Positions 6,178 to 63,446 of a stretch of DNA of 64,000 nucleotides are shown here, in pieces (position 1 is the first letter of the stretch; each line of letters opens with the position of its first letter). A program made the translations under genes and the position numbers. Source of the stretch: Minisyncoccota bacterium. Its GTDB lineage: Bacteria > Patescibacteriota > Minisyncoccia > Phycocordibacterales > SW-6-46-9. The stretch spans positions 395,526 through 459,525 of the forward strand of contig JBBDRP010000002.1 in assembly GCA_040905385.1 (NCBI GenBank). The letters run 5' to 3'. The notes under the pieces were generated by a model. It did not search any database. It saw only the letters and a program-made list of their open reading frames with translations, and was not told the DNA's origin.

Positions 6178-6257
6178 ATCCATGCCACTGTTGGTTTAAC
6201 ACCCCAACAGTGGCTTTTTCTTTGCATTATGTTGTATTTCTGCTATTATTTTCCCAT

Positions 6258-6704
6258 ATGTTACGAATAAGACTTTCAAGAGTAGGCCGAAAACACGACC
6301 CATCCTATCGGATGATTGTGACGGAAAAAGGTCGTGGGCCACAAACAGGAAATTATGTTGAGCAGGTTGGTACGTATGATGCTCGCTCAGACGAGCACAA
6401 CCTGAAGGCTGATCGTATTACGCACTGGATTTCAGTGGGTGCGCAGCCAAGTGATACGGTACACAACCTTCTTCTGAAGGCTGGTGTTATCAAGGGTGAG
6501 ACAGTTAATCCGCTGCCAAAGAAAACGCCGATTGTTTCTGAATCTGACCCCGTAAAGGAATCTGAAGATTCCCACGAGGCAGGAGAAGAAGAGGAAGCAG
6601 AAAAAGCTGATGAAGAATCTGATGACGAAGATAACGAAGCCGTGGAAGCTGAGGAAGATAATGAGGACGACGATACTGACGAAGAAGAGGAGGAAAATCA
6701 GTAG
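6258..6704 (+). CDS. rpsP: 30S ribosomal protein S16 with long poly-acidic C-terminal extension
   Basis: MLRIRLSRVGRKHDPSYRMIV..ITHWISVGAQPSDTV is canonical S16; internal ATG at 6258 within ORF 6210..6704; C-terminal about 65 aa are D/E-rich and carry the 41-nt element shared with udg. Confidence 0.85.
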   Translation: MLRIRLSRVGRKHDPSYRMIVTEKGRGPQTGNYVEQVGTYDARSDEHNLKADRITHWISVGAQPSDTVHNLLLKAGVIKGETVNPLPKKTPIVSESDPVKESEDSHEAGEEEEAEKADEESDDEDNEAVEAEEDNEDDDTDEEEEENQ

Positions 6705-45744: not shown

Positions 45745-46701
45745 ATGAAAAAAAGCTCAACACCAATAATAAAGCATCTCCATGACTTTCTCGACTGGAT
45801 CGATGTCGAGAAAGGCTTGGCTTCGACGACGCAGGAAAATTACGCTCGCTTCCTGGAACGCTTTTTTCAGTGGTTGAGAAACAATGATCTTACAGACCTG
45901 AAACCACATGAGCTCTCTGAGGATCATGTCTGGAAGTATCGTATTTATTTGGCTCGATACGCTAAAGGAACCGGATCCGAGGGGTTAAAGCGTAGCACCC
46001 AGCAGTACTACCTAATTGGCTTGCGGAGTCTGCTGCGATACTTTACCAAACGTGACATTACTTCCCTTCCCCCGGATAAAATTACGTTACCGAAGGATGA
46101 TACTGGTGATGAGGTACGAAACCTGACCATTGATCAGTTAAAAAAGATTTTTAAAGCACCAGATGTATCTACCAAAAGCGGTCTGCGAGATCGGACAATC
46201 CTGGAGACCTTTTTCTCTACCGGTATGCGAATATCTGAGCTGGTAGCTTTAGATAAGAAGCAGATTTCAAGTTCTATAAATAAAGACGAGCTGGAGCTGA
46301 GTATTACTGGTAAAGGTAGAAAAACTCGAACCGTTTACTTTTCGCCCCGAGCTCTGAAGTGGCTCGGCCGGTACCTGCAGTCACGCAAGGATGATGAGCC
46401 TGCCTTGTTTGTTAACTACCGAGCACCAAAGGATGCGTCACGGCGTCTGACACCTCGTTCAATTCAAAAACGGGTAAAAAAATATGCCGTATCCGCCGGT
46501 CTCCCGCAGGACACGACACCGCACGTGCTTCGACACTCTTTTGCAACAGATCTGCTGCGAAAAGGTGTTGATATCCGTATTCTGCAGGAGTTTCTCGGTC
46601 ACAGTAGTATTACAGCAACCCAGATATACACTCATGTAACCGACAAGCAGCTGCGGGATATACACGGTAAATTTCATGGTGGTGATGAACTAGATGAGTA
46701 G
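45745..46701 (+). CDS. xerC: Tyrosine site-specific recombinase, XerC/XerD type
   Basis: RISELVAL (Arg I), HVLRHSFATDLL (HxxR), LGHSSITATQIYTHV (catalytic Tyr). Confidence 0.85.
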   Translation: MKKSSTPIIKHLHDFLDWIDVEKGLASTTQENYARFLERFFQWLRNNDLTDLKPHELSEDHVWKYRIYLARYAKGTGSEGLKRSTQQYYLIGLRSLLRYFTKRDITSLPPDKITLPKDDTGDEVRNLTIDQLKKIFKAPDVSTKSGLRDRTILETFFSTGMRISELVALDKKQISSSINKDELELSITGKGRKTRTVYFSPRALKWLGRYLQSRKDDEPALFVNYRAPKDASRRLTPRSIQKRVKKYAVSAGLPQDTTPHVLRHSFATDLLRKGVDIRILQEFLGHSSITATQIYTHVTDKQLRDIHGKFHGGDELDE

Positions 46702-60246: not shown

Positions 60247-60346
60247 TTAATAAGTGTCCCGTAAAAGAGTCTCACTACGCTTAATTCCCGCGGCGGATCC
60301 ACGTGATAAATAAACACCTGCTAAAGGTGTTTTTTTATTTTACGTG

Positions 60347-60365
60347 GTGGACCTGAGGGGACTCG
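60347..60365 (-). repeat. 19-nt direct repeat of the tRNA-Ala(GGC) 3' terminus (GTGGACCTGAGGGGACTCG), followed by CCA on the minus strand
   Basis: Identical to 60527-60545; lies 162 bp downstream (minus sense) of the tRNA; att-core-like. Confidence 0.7.
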
Positions 60366-60527
60366 GTCACGAATAAATTTGCTCACGCAAATTTTTCTCG
60401 ACCCCGGCTCGCTATTCTCACCTTTCGCTTGCGCTCAAACTCAAATAAAGCTGCGCCTTTCGAGATCCCCACGTGAGTGCAGAAATGCACTCACTCAGCT
60501 CCAGTCGTCGAAGTAAATTCTCCTTTG

Positions 60528-60600
60528 TGGACCTGAGGGGACTCGAACCCCTGATCTCATCGCTGCCAGCGATGCGCTTTACCAGCTAAGCCACAGGCCC
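60528..60600 (-). tRNA. tRNA-Ala (anticodon GGC)
   Basis: GGGCCTGTGGCTTAGCTGGTAAAGCGCATCGCTGGCAGCGATGAGATCAGGGGTTCGAGTCCCCTCAGGTCCA; cloverleaf with G3:U70 Ala identity pair; CCA not encoded. Confidence 0.85.
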
Positions 60601-60701
60601 GTCCAATGCACTCTTCCACCTATTTCTTGTCTCGTTCCTCGACAAACAAAATTTTCTCACAATGTTCGAAACCAGATAAAAAGCAAAGAAGGTTGCTTTT
60701 T

Positions 60702-60722
60702 ATCCAACTGAGCTAACGGCCC
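60702..60722 (-). pseudogene. tRNA 5'-half fragment (GGGCCGTTAGCTCAGTTGGAT, acceptor and D arm) with no 3' half
   Basis: Abuts the trhO terminator hairpin at 60677-60706; resembles the tRNA-Ala 5' half. Confidence 0.4.
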
Positions 60723-60730
60723 ATATGTAT

Positions 60731-61609
60731 TTAGGAAGTTTTTGCGTGCATTTTGCGTGCCAGGCGCAGAGAATCCGAACGCTTAGCAAAGCAATTATCA
60801 CAGCAAAGCAGCTGACGGGACGGCGTGACCGAGTCATCATCTACATACTGCTCGGTAGTATCGCCACAGAAAAAGCACTCGCCCACAATACCACGCTCGC
60901 TCGGATCATCGGCCATATCAATGGTCATTCGCCCGTCGAATACGTACAGAGCACCTTTGTAGTGACCATCGGGATACTTTTCAATGTAGCGATGAATTCC
61001 ACCCTGTAGCTGATGCACATCTGAAAAGCCTTCCTTTTTCAGAAAGGCAGTCGCCTTCTCACACCGAATTCCACCCGTACAGACGGCCACCACTTTTTTG
61101 TCCTTGAGATCCTCAATCTCTTCGTGCGTCTCGTGAATCTCACGGAAGTTTCGCATGCCCGGATGGCGCGTCTTTTCGAACTTACCGCTGATGACCTCGT
61201 AATCATTGCGCATATCCACCACCGTAAAATCCTCATCCTTCTCGAACCACTCATGCAGTGTATCTGGGGTGATGTGGGTGCCCGTATCAACGGTCGGGTT
61301 GATGTTATCGCCAAGATCAGAGGCCACAATCTCCTCCCGAGCCTTTACAGAAAGCTTCGGAAAAGCCGCACCGGTACCGGGACTTCGCTTGAAGTCGATA
61401 TCGGCAAAGCGGTCATCGGCCTTCATCGACGTAATGTACGCCTGGATGTTCTCATCGGTACCTTCTAAGGTGGCGTTAATTCCCTCCTCTGCCACAATAA
61501 CTCGGCCCGTAAGACCATACTTCTTGCACAGCTCCCGCTGCCGTTGTCGCTCGGCCTCCGGATCAGCAATGGTCACATATTTGTAGAACAGAATTACGGT
61601 GTAGTCCAT
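60731..61609 (-). CDS. trhO: tRNA uridine(34) hydroxylase TrhO (rhodanese-domain protein, YceA/UPF0176)
   Basis: ILFYKYVTIADPEAERQRQRELCKKYGLTGRVIVAEEGINATLEG; rhodanese Cys CTGGIRCEKA; C-terminal CxxC..CC Zn ribbon. Confidence 0.8.
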   Translation of the reverse strand: MDYTVILFYKYVTIADPEAERQRQRELCKKYGLTGRVIVAEEGINATLEGTDENIQAYITSMKADDRFADIDFKRSPGTGAAFPKLSVKAREEIVASDLGDNINPTVDTGTHITPDTLHEWFEKDEDFTVVDMRNDYEVISGKFEKTRHPGMRNFREIHETHEEIEDLKDKKVVAVCTGGIRCEKATAFLKKEGFSDVHQLQGGIHRYIEKYPDGHYKGALYVFDGRMTIDMADDPSERGIVGECFFCGDTTEQYVDDDSVTPSRQLLCCDNCFAKRSDSLRLARKMHAKTS

Positions 61610-61656
61610 ACGGAATATTATAAAGTTTCGCGTAGTTTATTCAAGTAAGGAGTATC

Positions 61657-62043
61657 TTAAAATAGTGCAACCGAACTGACAAACAAGGCAATTCCAAGTC
61701 CCATACCAACAATACTGCTGGCAGTAATTACGTCGTCATTATCAATACTATTGATTAGTGTTACAAGTGATCGATGTGGAAGGAAAAGGTACAGCAGTGA
61801 CTCAACCACGGCTCCCCAGGCAATGATACCCACCAGGAACCCATGAAAGCTCTTCCAGTCGTTATGCAGCAGTGTTAAGAGCAATCCGAAGCTGAATACA
61901 ACCGTGCCCATCACAAAGAACGCACCATTCGATTCCTTTAATGACATCAGCATTGCCCTGACCTTCCGGCGGTCTATCAAGATAGCTAGACTAATCACAA
62001 AGTAAAGTACTCCTAAAAACTGAGCTAGATATAGTGTCATCAT
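61657..62043 (-). CDS. Hypothetical 4-TM membrane protein
   Basis: 128-aa hydrophobic ORF. Confidence 0.4.
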   Translation of the reverse strand: MMTLYLAQFLGVLYFVISLAILIDRRKVRAMLMSLKESNGAFFVMGTVVFSFGLLLTLLHNDWKSFHGFLVGIIAWGAVVESLLYLFLPHRSLVTLINSIDNDDVITASSIVGMGLGIALFVSSVALF

Positions 62044-62140
62044 GAAATATATTAGTTATGCATCCAGTATACCGTGTGCAGTTATAACAAAAAAGCATCA
62101 CGTCTAGCGTAATGCTTTGGATCTTCAACCTGTACTATAT

Positions 62141-63043
62141 TTAGAACTCCTCGATAGTACGAGCACTCTGTACCTGACCATCATCATCACCGTCGCCACC
62201 ATCATCACCTTGTACATCAACAGAACAGAGAGTTGAATGGAACTCATCTCCAGAGCTTACAGTTCCAAAGGCCTTCTTTTCGCCAGCAGTGCTGTATGAA
62301 GTCTCGACTTGAGATTCGTTGCCAGAAACAGCCCCTGTCCATTCATAGTTATAGGAGCCATCACCCCCGGTTACTGTCATACTCCAGGTCACCGTTTCAT
62401 CAATTTCTGGTTCGGATGGTGTTGCACTACACTGACCACTTAGTGTGCCGGCGTCAGTAACTTCGTCCTCACAATCGACCGTAAATGTAACGCTGGCTTC
62501 TTCTCCGTTGTTGAATACACTCATTTCATAGGATCCGTTCGGAAGATCTGCGTGCGTTAGAAAGTCTGCATCATCCTCATTTACTCCGACCCTGTAAATA
62601 TCACCATCAAGCGATAGTCCGTATGAATGGACATTCGTTACCGCGAATTCCACAACACCATCACCGTCAACACAACGCTGGTCAAGAATGGAAATCTGAA
62701 TTTCCTCCTCCTCATTATTATTTGATTCATTACTGCCCTCATCAGTATCGGTACTGTCAAAGAACGCAGCTCCAACACCGGCTAGGTTGCTAAACTCATC
62801 TGCTGATTCAAACGAACCGCAGTTATCAGAAAAAATAGCATTAAATGAGTCACAGTTAGCCAGCGTAGATCCCTCCTGTTCGCTCAGCCAGTCACTGAAT
62901 GCTGTGCCGGAATCCTGATCAGAAAAGTAATCTCCGTGTGGAGCAGCTTGGGCAGTTACCGCAAGTACAACAAACAGCATCACCGTAAATATAGCGACAA
63001 TGGCCCGTACGGTTGTAATTGTAGTATCGGTTTTTGTATTCAT
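62141..63043 (-). CDS. Hypothetical secreted acidic Cys-containing protein
   Basis: Signal anchor, D/E/S/T-rich, C-terminal GDDGGDGDDDG. Confidence 0.45.
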   Translation of the reverse strand: MNTKTDTTITTVRAIVAIFTVMLFVVLAVTAQAAPHGDYFSDQDSGTAFSDWLSEQEGSTLANCDSFNAIFSDNCGSFESADEFSNLAGVGAAFFDSTDTDEGSNESNNNEEEEIQISILDQRCVDGDGVVEFAVTNVHSYGLSLDGDIYRVGVNEDDADFLTHADLPNGSYEMSVFNNGEEASVTFTVDCEDEVTDAGTLSGQCSATPSEPEIDETVTWSMTVTGGDGSYNYEWTGAVSGNESQVETSYSTAGEKKAFGTVSSGDEFHSTLCSVDVQGDDGGDGDDDGQVQSARTIEEF

Positions 63044-63206
63044 AATTTATTTCTTAACGTGAGAATATAATACCTTTGTTATTTCTTTTGTCAATAGGTA
63101 ATAGAAATCGTTTAAAACTGTTTAGATTCGGCTTTTCTCTATTCTCTAACACGACAGCCGGCTGTCGTGTTTATATAACGTATTCTGATTTCTCTCCGAG
63201 TATATT

Positions 63207-63226
63207 TGTGGACCCGACAGGACTCG
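63207..63226 (-). repeat. 20-nt direct repeat of the tRNA-Ala(TGC) 3' terminus (TGTGGACCCGACAGGACTCG)
   Basis: Identical to 63372-63391; preceded by hairpin 63236-63255, which is homologous to hairpin 60375-60394. Confidence 0.7.
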
Positions 63227-63373
63227 CCTACAAGTAAATTTCCATACGGAAATTTCTCGCAGGCCGCCCCTCGCGGTCGTGCTCGTATACTGCGCACGAC
63301 ATCGCTGCGGCCTTCTCGTCTGACGAAGACAAAGAAATTTGTCTTCTTCGTCTCCACACTCACTTCGTTCGTG

Positions 63374-63446
63374 TGGACCCGACAGGACTCGAACCTGCCA
63401 CCTCCTCAGTGCAAGTGAGGCGCTCTACCAGATGAGCTACGGGCCC
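63374..63446 (-). tRNA. tRNA-Ala (anticodon TGC)
   Basis: GGGCCCGTAGCTCATCTGGTAGAGCGCCTCACTTGCACTGAGGAGGTGGCAGGTTCGAGTCCTGTCGGGTCCA; G3:U70; CCA not encoded. Confidence 0.85.

Follow-up and report, generated by a model that had tools for sequence, protein, structure and literature searches.

Integrative elements that target tRNA and tmRNA genes, such as tyrosine-integrase islands, prophages, CIME-type elements and tycheposon satellites, insert into the 3' part of the gene and leave it functional. They are accompanied by direct repeats running from the T-loop to the gene end, by tandem accretion and by empty sites in relatives. The element described here, two copies of which follow tRNA-Ala genes in the window (the whole 64-kb stretch of DNA that was analysed), shares these features. 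Unlike the known systems, it is only ~165 nt long, lacks an integrase and cargo, and contains a conserved structured core together with an internal reverse-complement copy of its target; moreover, one family serves almost all tRNA species, and no attP-bearing free form of the element is known. It resembles MITEs in being small, non-coding, multi-copy, structured and patchily distributed, but it lacks terminal inverted repeats that match an IS, its ends (CA.../...GTGAC) not being inverted repeats at all, and instead of a short target duplication of fixed length it has a duplicated tRNA-specific segment, 56-73. Also unlike MITEs, its target is strictly a tRNA or tmRNA gene and its orientation is fixed. 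Our literature searches found no description of such an element.

The two tRNA-Ala genes of the window are 75% identical, as the first-pass annotation had estimated. Each is followed by a tail of 165-180 nt, which closes with an exact 19-20-nt copy of the T-loop/acceptor 3' end of its own tRNA. These copies had been described earlier, and their coordinates were recovered in our analysis; both repeats start at tRNA position C56. The genes, repeats and neighbouring signals are as follows.

60528..60600 (start 60527/8), - strand: tRNA-Ala(GGC), intact (ARAGORN; Rfam tRNA, 67.5 bits)
60527-60545, - strand: proximal repeat Y of GGC, tRNA positions 56-73 plus C74 (repeat search); 19-nt exact repeat CGAGTCCCCTCAGGTCCAC
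60347-60365 (with flanking CA, 60345..60365), - strand: distal copy of tRNA-Ala(GGC) positions 56-74, the second occurrence of this repeat
60312..60332, - strand: bidirectional intrinsic-terminator-like hairpin 3' of the GGC element, with the tRNA and tail upstream of it
63491-63464, - strand: promoter-like site of tRNA-Ala(TGC)
63374..63446 (start 63373/4), - strand: tRNA-Ala(TGC), intact (ARAGORN, Rfam)
63372-63391, - strand: proximal repeat of tRNA-Ala(TGC); 20-nt exact repeat CGAGTCCTGTCGGGTCCACA
63207-63226, - strand: distal copy of tRNA-Ala(TGC) positions 56-75, the second occurrence of this repeat, followed by native flank
63148..63171, no strand assigned: perfect 12 + 12-nt palindrome 3' of the TGC element, terminator-like with a weak U-run

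The last of these had been reported as a 10-bp stem at 63149-63170; the palindrome is present, but slightly larger. The proximal GGC copy reads ..A73-CAA on the gene side. The distal one is followed by CA and thus reads ..A73-CCA, in agreement with the CCA noticed before, and CCA ends three of the four tails first compared, the window GGC tail among them. A tRNA 5' relic at 60702-60722, also pointed out earlier, corresponds to the 5' terminus of a different tRNA-Ala(GGC) allele.

In the tRNA sense, the layout of an occupied gene is X (positions 1-55), Y (56-73), leader, Y', a core of ~90 nt, a second direct Y and the native flank. The proximal Y completes the working tRNA, and Y' is the reverse complement of Y. 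This internal copy, found in each tail, was absent from the first-pass annotation. The core was modelled with CM R1, a covariance model of the tail family built in this analysis.

60504..60526, - strand: GGC leader AAAGGAGAATTTACTTCGACGAC, without hairpin or terminator
60495..60503, - strand: GGC Y'acc UGGAGCUGA, reverse complement of the acceptor 3' strand (predicted fold)
60473..60494, - strand: GGC hairpin 1, 9-bp stem, UUUC loop (predicted fold)
60461..60470, - strand: GGC Y'T GGGGAUCUCG, complementary to the 3' strand of the T-stem and to the 3' portion of the T-loop
60366..60460, - strand: GGC conserved core (CM R1 60357-60479, 81.2 bits, E 3.7e-24; covariation)
63315..63371, - strand: 5' module of the TGC element (predicted fold), comprising the next four features
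63359-71, - strand: TGC leader
63348-58, - strand: TGC Y'acc UGUGGAGACGA
63325-47, - strand: TGC hairpin 1, UUUC loop
63315-24, - strand: TGC GU and Y'T CAGACGAG
63227..63314, - strand: TGC core, a diverged member (CM R1 63218-63333, 45.8 bits, E 9e-13)

The GGC leader is nearly identical to that of the tRNA-Ala(TGC) element of a syntenic relative, L008. The GGC Y'acc has one mismatch, opposite G69, and an A opposite U70, while hairpin 1 divides the antisense segment at the acceptor/T-stem junction. The order of the GGC core is AAA-[GnC]-GCA-[GC]..P3..[GC]-GA-[Gn'C]-GG-P4 (GGUCGAG..UUCGUGACC)-P4b hairpin (60375-60394), ending in GTGAC, with GCA where the family consensus is GGA. In the TGC core, compensatory changes rebuild P4 (GCCUGCGAG/CUUGUAGGC), the junction is GTAGG|C, and the P4b hairpin lies at 63236-63255. 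The core thus described is a three-way junction; one of its arms is P2/P3, which has an internal loop of tandem G.A, and another is P4/P4b. The A/U-rich hairpins which the first reading had rightly called homologous, with compensatory changes, are the AAATTT hairpins of both tails and correspond to helix P4b; a pattern derived from them occurs within the 64-kb window in the two tails only (0.01 expected). A degenerate copy of the tRNA 5' strand, as in a tandem pseudo-tRNA, was considered for Y' and rejected: of the 63 informative positions, 52 show Watson-Crick complementarity of Y' to the 3' strand of the tRNA and 4 favour the 5'-strand copy.

CM R1 finds exactly two tails in the window (81 and 46 bits) and also recovers those of relatives; the window tails are two diverged members of one family. 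Its core sequence pattern was present at at least 120 metagenome loci and in at least 119 GTDB genomes, nearly all of them Patescibacteria (CPR). Among 241 non-redundant copies, 173 lie no more than 270 nt downstream of a same-strand tRNA gene (19 amino-acid specificities) or tmRNA gene, and the direct copy usually matches the neighbouring tRNA from C56 to the end. The C56-to-C56 spacing of the 241 copies is mostly 160-190 nt, without coding capacity, and the direct-repeat length peaks at 19-22 nt. Longer direct repeats of 25-57 nt occur as well; being possible remnants of tandem units, they are ambiguous and were not accepted as proof of target-site duplication. In the fetched loci the elements follow a minority of tRNA genes: an exact 16-nt copy of the gene's own 3' end was found for 106 of 451 tRNA/tmRNA genes, nearly always 120-220 nt downstream. 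Only two of these 106 repeat pairs are more than 330 nt apart, owing to an IS3 insertion in the leader (L239) and an unrelated ORF unit (L215), and nothing else turned up in the search for an autonomous gene-bearing version. Tandem arrays of up to 3-4 units with mixed core types are also found, occasionally with an ORF (one of 124 aa).

None of the copies was linked to a gene for a recombinase, reverse transcriptase, TnpB/IscB or another candidate enzyme, no integrase gene, coding remnant or ORF was found inside the repeats (145-190 nt), and neither scans of viral contigs nor BLAST against phages and plasmids gave a match to the element. The first pattern used (AAATTT hairpin plus CGAGTCC) had only chance matches on viral contigs. 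The family has no match to any Rfam 15 family. Within the window, the gathering-score matches were the two tRNAs alone, and the tail core, antisense segment and distal copy gave no Rfam 15 match at E<=10; the sole overlap was a sub-threshold one with tmRNA_permuted (19 bits, E 0.5, 60495-60552), which starts in the 3' end of the tRNA and extends through the leader to Y'acc.

Related genomes were compared by synteny, using homologous proteins and the contigs encoding them (a TrhO-based scan of genome contigs gave nothing). As the first-pass annotation had proposed, empty sites were sought and they exist: relatives L006 and L010 are empty at both tRNA-Ala sites, and L007 is empty at TGC, so that the tRNA-plus-tail arrangement is not a single conserved unit. 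L007 bears a tail of the window-TGC type at GGC, the window-GGC type sits at TGC in L008, and L011 and L012 contain remnants. The window flank after the distal TGC repeat is homologous to the flank directly 3' of the tail-less L007 tRNA. These sequence comparisons support the conclusion that the tails are insertions relative to related genomes, although deletion between the direct repeats could also produce the presence/absence pattern. Furthermore, cores that are 85-97% identical stand behind Asn/Tyr/Arg, Leu/Trp and Ala/Gly tRNA genes and behind a pair of neighbouring tRNA-Arg genes, and in each case Y' and Y have changed so as to fit the gene at hand.

A tRNA 3' end of its own would make it hard for an element to shift to another tRNA. 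Target-site duplication would account for the match, yet it would account neither for Y' nor for a repeat that ends at the tRNA end. T-loop positions 55-59 are the one sequence common to nearly all tRNAs and tmRNA. Based on our observations, we consider it moderately probable that the tails are copies of an insertion element that is non-autonomous and targets the T-loop, and that folds, as a single strand, into a mimic of the acceptor/T-arm of a tRNA. It would enter by recombination at T-loop positions 55-59, and the gene would stay intact with its 3' end duplicated. In the single strand, either a read-through RNA from the tRNA promoter or ssDNA, Y' would pair with Y and rebuild an acceptor/T-arm-like helix, in which the core would occupy the place of the T-loop. 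This tRNA 'top-half' mimic might be what a trans-acting enzyme recognises, either for recombination, as a folded site of the attC/CTX kind, or for processing of the RNase P/CCA type. The negative searches for a linked enzyme gene and for a free, phage or plasmid copy count against this reading, as do the difficulty of shifting to another tRNA and the terminator-like hairpins in the leaders of many members. A further-reaching version, that the element is a protein-less ~165-nt CPR parasite or symbiont with a universal T-loop landing site, building, at each landing, inverted and direct copies of the local tRNA 3' end from the target itself, so as to mimic in every case the tRNA in front of it, without any linked enzyme and driven by host tRNA-handling enzymes or a trans-acting recombinase, is offered tentatively, as we regard it as rather doubtful.

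A partial parallel to such folding is offered by integron attC sites and CTX-type elements (IMEX), as here too an imperfect palindrome (Y'...Y) at the 3' end of the unit can fold into a mimic of a double-stranded target. As with integron cassettes, the units form arrays, a few with an ORF, and folding is strand-specific. On the other hand, the element lacks the R''/R' core sites and RYYYAAC / GTTRRRY, no IntI lies beside the array, most units are empty, and it is the T-loop that is targeted instead of attI or dif. Its stem sequence is tRNA-specific instead of following a consensus, and its loop (the core) is conserved and covarying, which the central regions of attC are not.

Among the alternatives, a host-function RNA fares best, though we judge it improbable: the tail would be a cis module of the tRNA transcript, vertically inherited and often lost between the direct repeats, which serves as a tRNA-like 3' domain for RNase P or 3'-end processing, as a 3' shield, as a decoy, or as a switch, with Y' alternating between the distal Y and the 3' half of the tRNA itself as pairing partner. 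The structural data, on which the insertion-element reading rests as well, are what is expected of RNA. Over more than 200 relatives, 98.4% of the cells in the core helices are paired (77% in shuffles; 35-55% in slid controls), double-change cells number 474 against 117 in shuffles, and the core keeps invariant unpaired bases. As G.U pairs (98) far outnumber all other non-standard pairs (39), the folded strand is the tRNA-sense strand, on which the core is conserved and covarying. Each window tail also sits between its tRNA and the next terminator-like hairpin, within the tRNA transcription unit; the predicted folds of the two tails (z = -4.6 and -5.4) pair Y' with the distal Y into an acceptor/T-arm-like helix, with the CCA ends noted above; and an orphan core in L012 without any tRNA copy still scores 66 bits. 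Against a host function, the two tRNA-Ala genes are tail-less in the closest relatives and swap tail types with one another, tandem arrays combine different cores, and 19 tRNA species and tmRNA are served, yet only a minority of the genes. The Y':Y helix (P1) matches the host tRNA and then decays neutrally, with a mismatch spectrum of GU 56 and AC 49. Finally, many family members have a strong terminator-like hairpin in the leader between tRNA and Y', therefore such copies may be barely transcribed. Filled and empty sites were compared to see whether these hairpins are native terminators; the only pair suited to this (L037/L076) lacks a hairpin at its empty site.

The predicted fold shares with the tRNA-like domain of tmRNA an acceptor/T-arm-like helix, sometimes a CCA end, and extra RNA at the place of the T-loop. 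It differs from an alanine acceptor in having A:U where the G3.U70 identity pair stood. A tmRNA or permuted tmRNA was rejected, as ARAGORN found no tmRNA, no model matched above threshold, and translation by eye revealed no conserved tag frame between the tails. Group I introns of tmRNA are also located in the T-loop (10.1101/2020.01.27.920355). The published tRNA introns of Patescibacteria lie at position 35/36 (PMC13011429). A group I or other intron was likewise discarded: the element has no group I core (no Intron_gpI match at E<=10), its core is only ~90 nt, and a complete tRNA precedes it, so that, unlike in T-loop introns, no splicing is needed.

We regard it as quite unlikely that Y' and the core are the guide and scaffold of an RNA-guided homing or insertion system, in which an unlinked nuclease or recombinase recognises unoccupied tRNA genes and the insertion point is the edge of the guide-target duplex. 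The arrangement does recall omega RNA (IscB/TnpB) and the IS110 bridge RNA, where a target-complementary segment is fused to an end-encoded scaffold and reprogrammed between copies. Y' (15-22 nt, complementary to the tRNA sense strand) abuts the conserved scaffold, its complementarity reaches C56, the insertion junction, and scaffolds that are still 85-97% identical carry different guide-like segments. However, no TnpB, IscB, IS110-type or Cas-like gene lies beside any copy, window and orphan copies included, and autonomous IS are all far larger than the element. Moreover, Y' decays neutrally instead of being kept matched, the full target persists in the occupied allele, and Y' runs on into the non-tRNA 3' flank of the gene. 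Selection on a guide-like Y', matched to the proximal copy where the distal one differs, was rejected, as neutral decay of two copies derived from one conserved sequence predicts the same and the mismatch spectrum is neutral. A retroviral-type primer-binding site was rejected too, since Y' continues into the flank and not into TGG, the complement of CCA.

It is very unlikely that the tails are by-products of replication or repair without a dedicated enzyme, with the T-loop palindrome (TTCGAA/TCGA) serving as microhomology for fold-back and template switching between occupied and unoccupied tRNA genes, which would yield inverted and direct copies around a fork-stalling, hairpin-rich core. Several observations are in line with this: both junctions (..TCGAA|AG at the end of Y' and GTGAC|CGA at the end of the core) fall in universal T-loop bases, the distal copy bears the element's G57 in tRNAs with A57, and the target is triplicated in direct-inverted-direct order, as is typical of template switching. 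In addition, the 46-nt direct repeat of L112 stops at the turn of a perfect fold-back, and rare mirror-image products duplicate the 5' part of the tRNA (L060, L096, L244). Such a process leaves unexplained the strand-specific, covarying core with its invariant unpaired bases, and the uniform architecture of several hundred copies in many CPR classes.

That the tails are attL/attR scars of classical integrase islands or prophages that lost almost all their DNA is highly improbable, even though tRNA 3'-end repeats from the T-loop are the classic tyrosine-integrase signature and tmRNA is also targeted, because independent deletions would not leave the same covarying 90-nt core and a size of 160-190 nt 241 times, without a coding remnant or any phage, plasmid or viral-contig match, and because the intervening genes belong to the conserved core neighbourhood of the two tRNAs. 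The first-pass annotation had spoken of mini-remnants or tiny integrative elements; the latter is nearer the truth, as copies so uniform, non-coding and covarying are not decayed scars of larger islands. The trhO, 4-TM and secreted protein genes, which it saw as enclosed by scars, are not cargo, because relatives without tails have the same gene order. Nor does anything link the tails to the xerC-like gene at 45745 that was suggested as a candidate integrase; this gene, the only recombinase in the window, lies ~14 kb away and scores as a generic XerC/D below equivalog cut-offs.

If it is mobile, few known site-specific elements would be as small as the T-loop-targeted insertion element, and in the literature searched no earlier one was found for which the tRNA T-loop is a universal target and every target gene stays intact. 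The phenomenon, which reaches almost every tRNA species and tmRNA across a phylum, went unnoticed in the first reading of this DNA. A considerable fraction of the tRNA genes is occupied by such elements, in a phylum whose genomes are extremely reduced and contain little non-coding DNA. In CPR genomes, tRNA annotation and programs that search for islands will be misled by the repeated tRNA 3' ends and the pseudo-tRNA fragments. The three-way-junction core represents a new family of structured RNA (or single-stranded DNA), absent from Rfam, and the covariance model makes it testable how the element comes to match each new tRNA with both a sense and an antisense copy. Should it be a parasite or symbiont, it would represent self-reprogramming target recognition without a linked enzyme.

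Both tRNA-Ala genes of the window are followed by a tail, i.e. a ~165-180-nt insert that ends in an exact copy of the gene's own 3' end. The coordinates and description of both tails in the first-pass annotation proved correct when the tRNAs were called and the exact repeats located again. The features discussed here are:

60528-60600, - strand: tRNA-Ala(GGC)
60527-60545 and 60347-60365, - strand: exact copies of the tRNA-Ala(GGC) 3' end, 19 nt
60312-60332: terminator-like hairpin, 3' of the GGC element
63374-63446, - strand: tRNA-Ala(TGC)
63372-63391 and 63207-63226, - strand: exact copies of the tRNA-Ala(TGC) 3' end, 20 nt
63148-63171: perfect palindrome AACACGACAGCC/GGCTGTCGTGTT, 12 + 12 nt, no spacer, directly 3' of the TGC element
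45745-46701: tyrosine recombinase after the dcw cluster, generic XerC/XerD (222 and 217 bits, below the equivalog cut-offs)

Both repeats run from C56 of the T-loop to the discriminator and one or two further bases. CCA follows the distal GGC copy and is absent after the proximal one. The two tails can be aligned with one another, and their folding lies far above that of shuffled controls (z = -4.6 and -5.4). As the terminator-like hairpin or the 24-nt palindrome (itself terminator-like, with a weak U-run) comes after each element, the sequence places both tails inside the putative tRNA transcription units.

We refer to tRNA positions 1-55 as X, to the 3' segment (56-73), proximal in the gene and distal after the core, as Y, and to its reverse complement as Y'. 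In the tRNA sense, each tail starts with a short leader, followed by a stretch complementary to the 3' strand of the acceptor (UGGAGCUGA / UGUGGAGACGA), a UUUC-loop hairpin, and GU with a second stretch complementary to the 3' strand of the T-stem and to the T-loop; the structured core (~90 nt) and the distal tRNA copy complete it. In the predicted folds of both window tails, pairing of these complementary stretches with the distal copy forms an acceptor/T-arm-like helix, in which A:U would take the place of G3.U70, the alanine identity pair, and 4:69 would be mismatched. No Rfam 15 family matches the core, even at E<=10, and no tmRNA features were detected in the window tails (ARAGORN, Rfam). 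An intron was rejected, as the whole tRNA precedes the element and no splicing is needed. The tRNA introns described from Patescibacteria belong to group I and sit at position 35/36 (PMC13011429); those known from a T-loop are likewise of group I and lie in tmRNA (10.1101/2020.01.27.920355).

The 3' part of the core supplied a search pattern, GGGGTNGNGNAA-N18-28-ATYYGTGACCGANTC, which matched at least 120 metagenome loci and at least 119 species-representative genomes, and nothing in the viral contigs scanned with it. Among the matches listed, almost all genomes are Patescibacteria, and the groups found are Paceibacterota, Kaiser-, Nomura-, Morani-, Yonath-, Lloyd-, Taylor- and Yanofskybacteria, and MAGs labelled Saccharibacteria. 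A few matches lie in MAGs labelled Polaromonas, Elusimicrobiota, Treponema or Bdellovibrionales (L133, L149, L154, L162, L188, L197-L199, L203, L209), which could be either mis-binned CPR contigs or genuine occurrences beyond CPR.

The matches listed yielded 241 non-redundant copies: 173 have a same-strand tRNA (19 specificities) or tmRNA no more than 270 nt upstream, 31 are truncated by a contig end, and the remaining 37 are mostly second or third units of tandem arrays. In these copies, GTGAC is usually followed by a copy of the local tRNA itself from C56 onward, with repeat lengths peaking at 19-22 nt and a C56-to-C56 spacing of mostly 160-190 nt. At the loci examined, an exact 16-nt copy of the gene's own 3' end was found for 106 of 451 tRNA/tmRNA genes, nearly always 120-220 nt downstream. 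The tmRNA genes carrying an element downstream (L036, L058, L097, L121, L145, L147, L151, L156, L165, L190) have 3' ends such as GGGGGTTCGATTCCCCCCATCTCCAC. In 227 element-free tRNA genes of the CPR contigs examined, the bases after the discriminator were most often CAA (72), CAG (30), CAT (18) or CAC (15), and CCA in only 46; because CA is so common at this position, the repeats appear 1-3 nt longer.

The covariance model of the family (R1), built on 99 metagenome copies, recognises both tails (81 and 46 bits) and nothing else in the window. The TGC tail is thus a diverged member with compensatory changes preserving P4. The core is a three-way junction with a P2/P3 and a P4/P4b arm and the consensus ..GGA(N)UCG-AAA-[GNC]-GGA-[GC]-GAUGU-P3-C[GC]-GA-[GN'C]-GG-[GGUCGCGG]AAA-P4b-AUUAU[CCGUGACC56]. 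Covariation was counted on 139 genome-set copies, none of them used in model building. In their alignment, which was fitted to the model's structure, 98.4% of cells are paired versus 77% in shuffles, and both sides are changed in 474 cells versus 117; sliding the partners lowers pairing to 35-55%. The middle pair of P2 is GC in 53 of these copies, CG in 31, AU in 24 and UA in 15. G.U pairs (98) far exceed all other non-standard pairs combined (39), which indicates that it is the tRNA-sense strand that folds.

TrhO adjoining tRNA-Ala(GGC) is identical to a Candidatus Paceibacterota MAG protein. The order Ddl, tRNA-Ala(TGC), secreted protein, 4-TM protein, TrhO, tRNA-Ala(GGC), ThrRS, DnaE is kept in seven related contigs (L006-L012), and the genes between the two tRNAs, earlier described as enclosed by integration scars, are thus conserved neighbours rather than cargo. 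Tail occupancy varies among these contigs:

L006 and L010: TrhO 80% identical, both tRNA-Ala genes without a tail
L007: TGC without a tail, GGC with a tail of the window TGC type
L008/L009: TGC with a tail of the window GGC type, GGC with other small elements
L011: GGC with a tail, TGC with a 5' remnant only
L012 (Campbellbacteria MAG), 1975-2087: orphan core (66 bits) after the tRNA-Ala(TGC) terminator, without antisense segment or distal tRNA copy

Because occupancy differs at the same tRNA genes, the tails are indels relative to close relatives; in L007, the sequence 3' of the TGC gene is homologous to that after the distal repeat in the window. Tail type is independent of tRNA type in the relatives compared, and the complementary segments nonetheless always match the local tRNA. 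The first-pass annotation had proposed site-specific integration that left mini-remnants or tiny integrative elements: tiny elements, with empty sites in L006, L010 and L007, are borne out, whereas the uniform size and conserved core speak against remnants.

The GGC locus has further irregularities. In L011, the interval between TrhO and tRNA-Ala(GGC) contains an ARAGORN call at 6243-6316, a tRNA-like gene whose anticodon has four bases (gaaa). In the window (60601-60730, -), a relic at 60702-60722, GGGCCGTTAGCTCAGTTGGAT, starts 8 nt past the trhO stop, exactly at the tRNA start position of L006/L007/L010. Its sequence matches another tRNA-Ala(GGC) allele at the 5' end; that allele is intact in L008/L009, where the same relic is also present. 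The ~100 nt after the relic resemble a decayed tRNA plus a remnant like type B, one of three core types (A, B and C) differing in sequence. The relic and this stretch suggest that tRNA-Ala(GGC) was also duplicated or replaced at its 5' side.

Cores 85-90% identical stand behind different tRNAs (Asn/Tyr/Arg; Leu/Trp; Ala/Gly), and 97% identical ones behind two adjacent tRNA-Arg genes; such elements differ only in Y', Y and leader. Y' is uninterrupted (14-22 nt) in about half of the family and, in the other half, both window copies included, interrupted by a hairpin at the acceptor/T-stem junction. Where the tRNA has a G.U or mismatch, Y' carries the Watson-Crick complement of the 3' strand in 52 cases versus the tRNA's own base in 4, which rules out a copy of the tRNA 5' strand. 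Mismatches of Y' lack wobble bias (GU-type 56, AC-type 49), in which respect the core differs. That Y' fits the proximal copy better is not counted as a sign of selection, since the same is expected if two copies of a conserved original decay neutrally. In A57 tRNAs, the gene keeps A57, Y' has T opposite and the distal copy has G57; the right junction therefore lies at 57-59, and the element ends in ..GTGACCGA. In this picture, Y' and the distal Y begin as faithful copies of the target, one inverted and one direct, and drift afterwards, with the core conserved.

Tandem arrays contain up to three or four Y-bounded units (L174, L194, L063, L188) and may combine different cores (types A + C; type B in L008) with a common 5' module. 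The type B core contains ..GUUUUCCGUGAAGGAGAGCAA.. and a long palindrome, and that of type C ends in ..GUACUGA(N)CUGUAAG(N)UCGA. Small elements with other cores and the same layout, i.e. tRNA 3' copy, leader, antisense segment, core and tRNA 3' copy, occur in L008 (7144-7330 and 3600-4000), L194, L063 and, downstream of tRNA-Ser, L060. This common layout suggests that types A, B and C may form one superfamily. One array unit, L063 (-) unit 3, has a 124-aa ORF, and L215 (4311-5300) a unit with an ORF of about 290 aa, both bounded by tRNA 3'-end repeats; these are possibly cargo-bearing cassettes. In L239 (1530-2900), an IS3-family insertion (orfA 145 aa, orfB 266 aa; ends TGTACCCC../..GGGGTACG) lies in the leader of a tRNA-Leu element. 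A rare mirror-image layout has a degenerate tRNA 5' part, the core at the T-loop position and, beginning 33-59 nt later, an intact copy of the same tRNA (L060, L096, L244; also L062, L218); in L244, the P4 hairpin alone replaces T54-T55.

The best-supported reading of the tails is that of small insertion elements, non-autonomous and targeting the T-loop in tRNA and tmRNA genes. The elements themselves have no ORF; no integrase or other enzyme gene was found in or beside them in the window and the examined loci, and no counterpart among the phage and plasmid sequences and viral contigs searched. The xerC-like gene at 45745, once put forward as one candidate for a cognate integrase, is of the generic Xer type, scores only weakly as an integron integrase and has no positional link to the elements. 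One crossover in Y by a circular or dumbbell-shaped [Y-leader-Y'-core] molecule would yield the layout X-Y-leader-Y'-core-Y. The Y':Y stem of such a molecule would imitate a double-stranded target, as do the stems of attC sites and the CTX phage attP hairpin. As RNA, it would imitate the acceptor/T-arm of a tRNA, and both RNase P and the CCA-adding enzyme could be recruited to it.

Among the alternatives, an RNA that serves the host and is often lost is unlikely, and an RNA guide for an effector encoded elsewhere is improbable. Template switching at the palindromic T-loop, with no enzyme involved, seems to us very doubtful. Scars of classical islands, contradicted by the uniform element size and conserved core, are hardly credible. 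For elements of this kind we found no published description in the literature searched, and the two window tails lead to a family of them that is phylum-wide.
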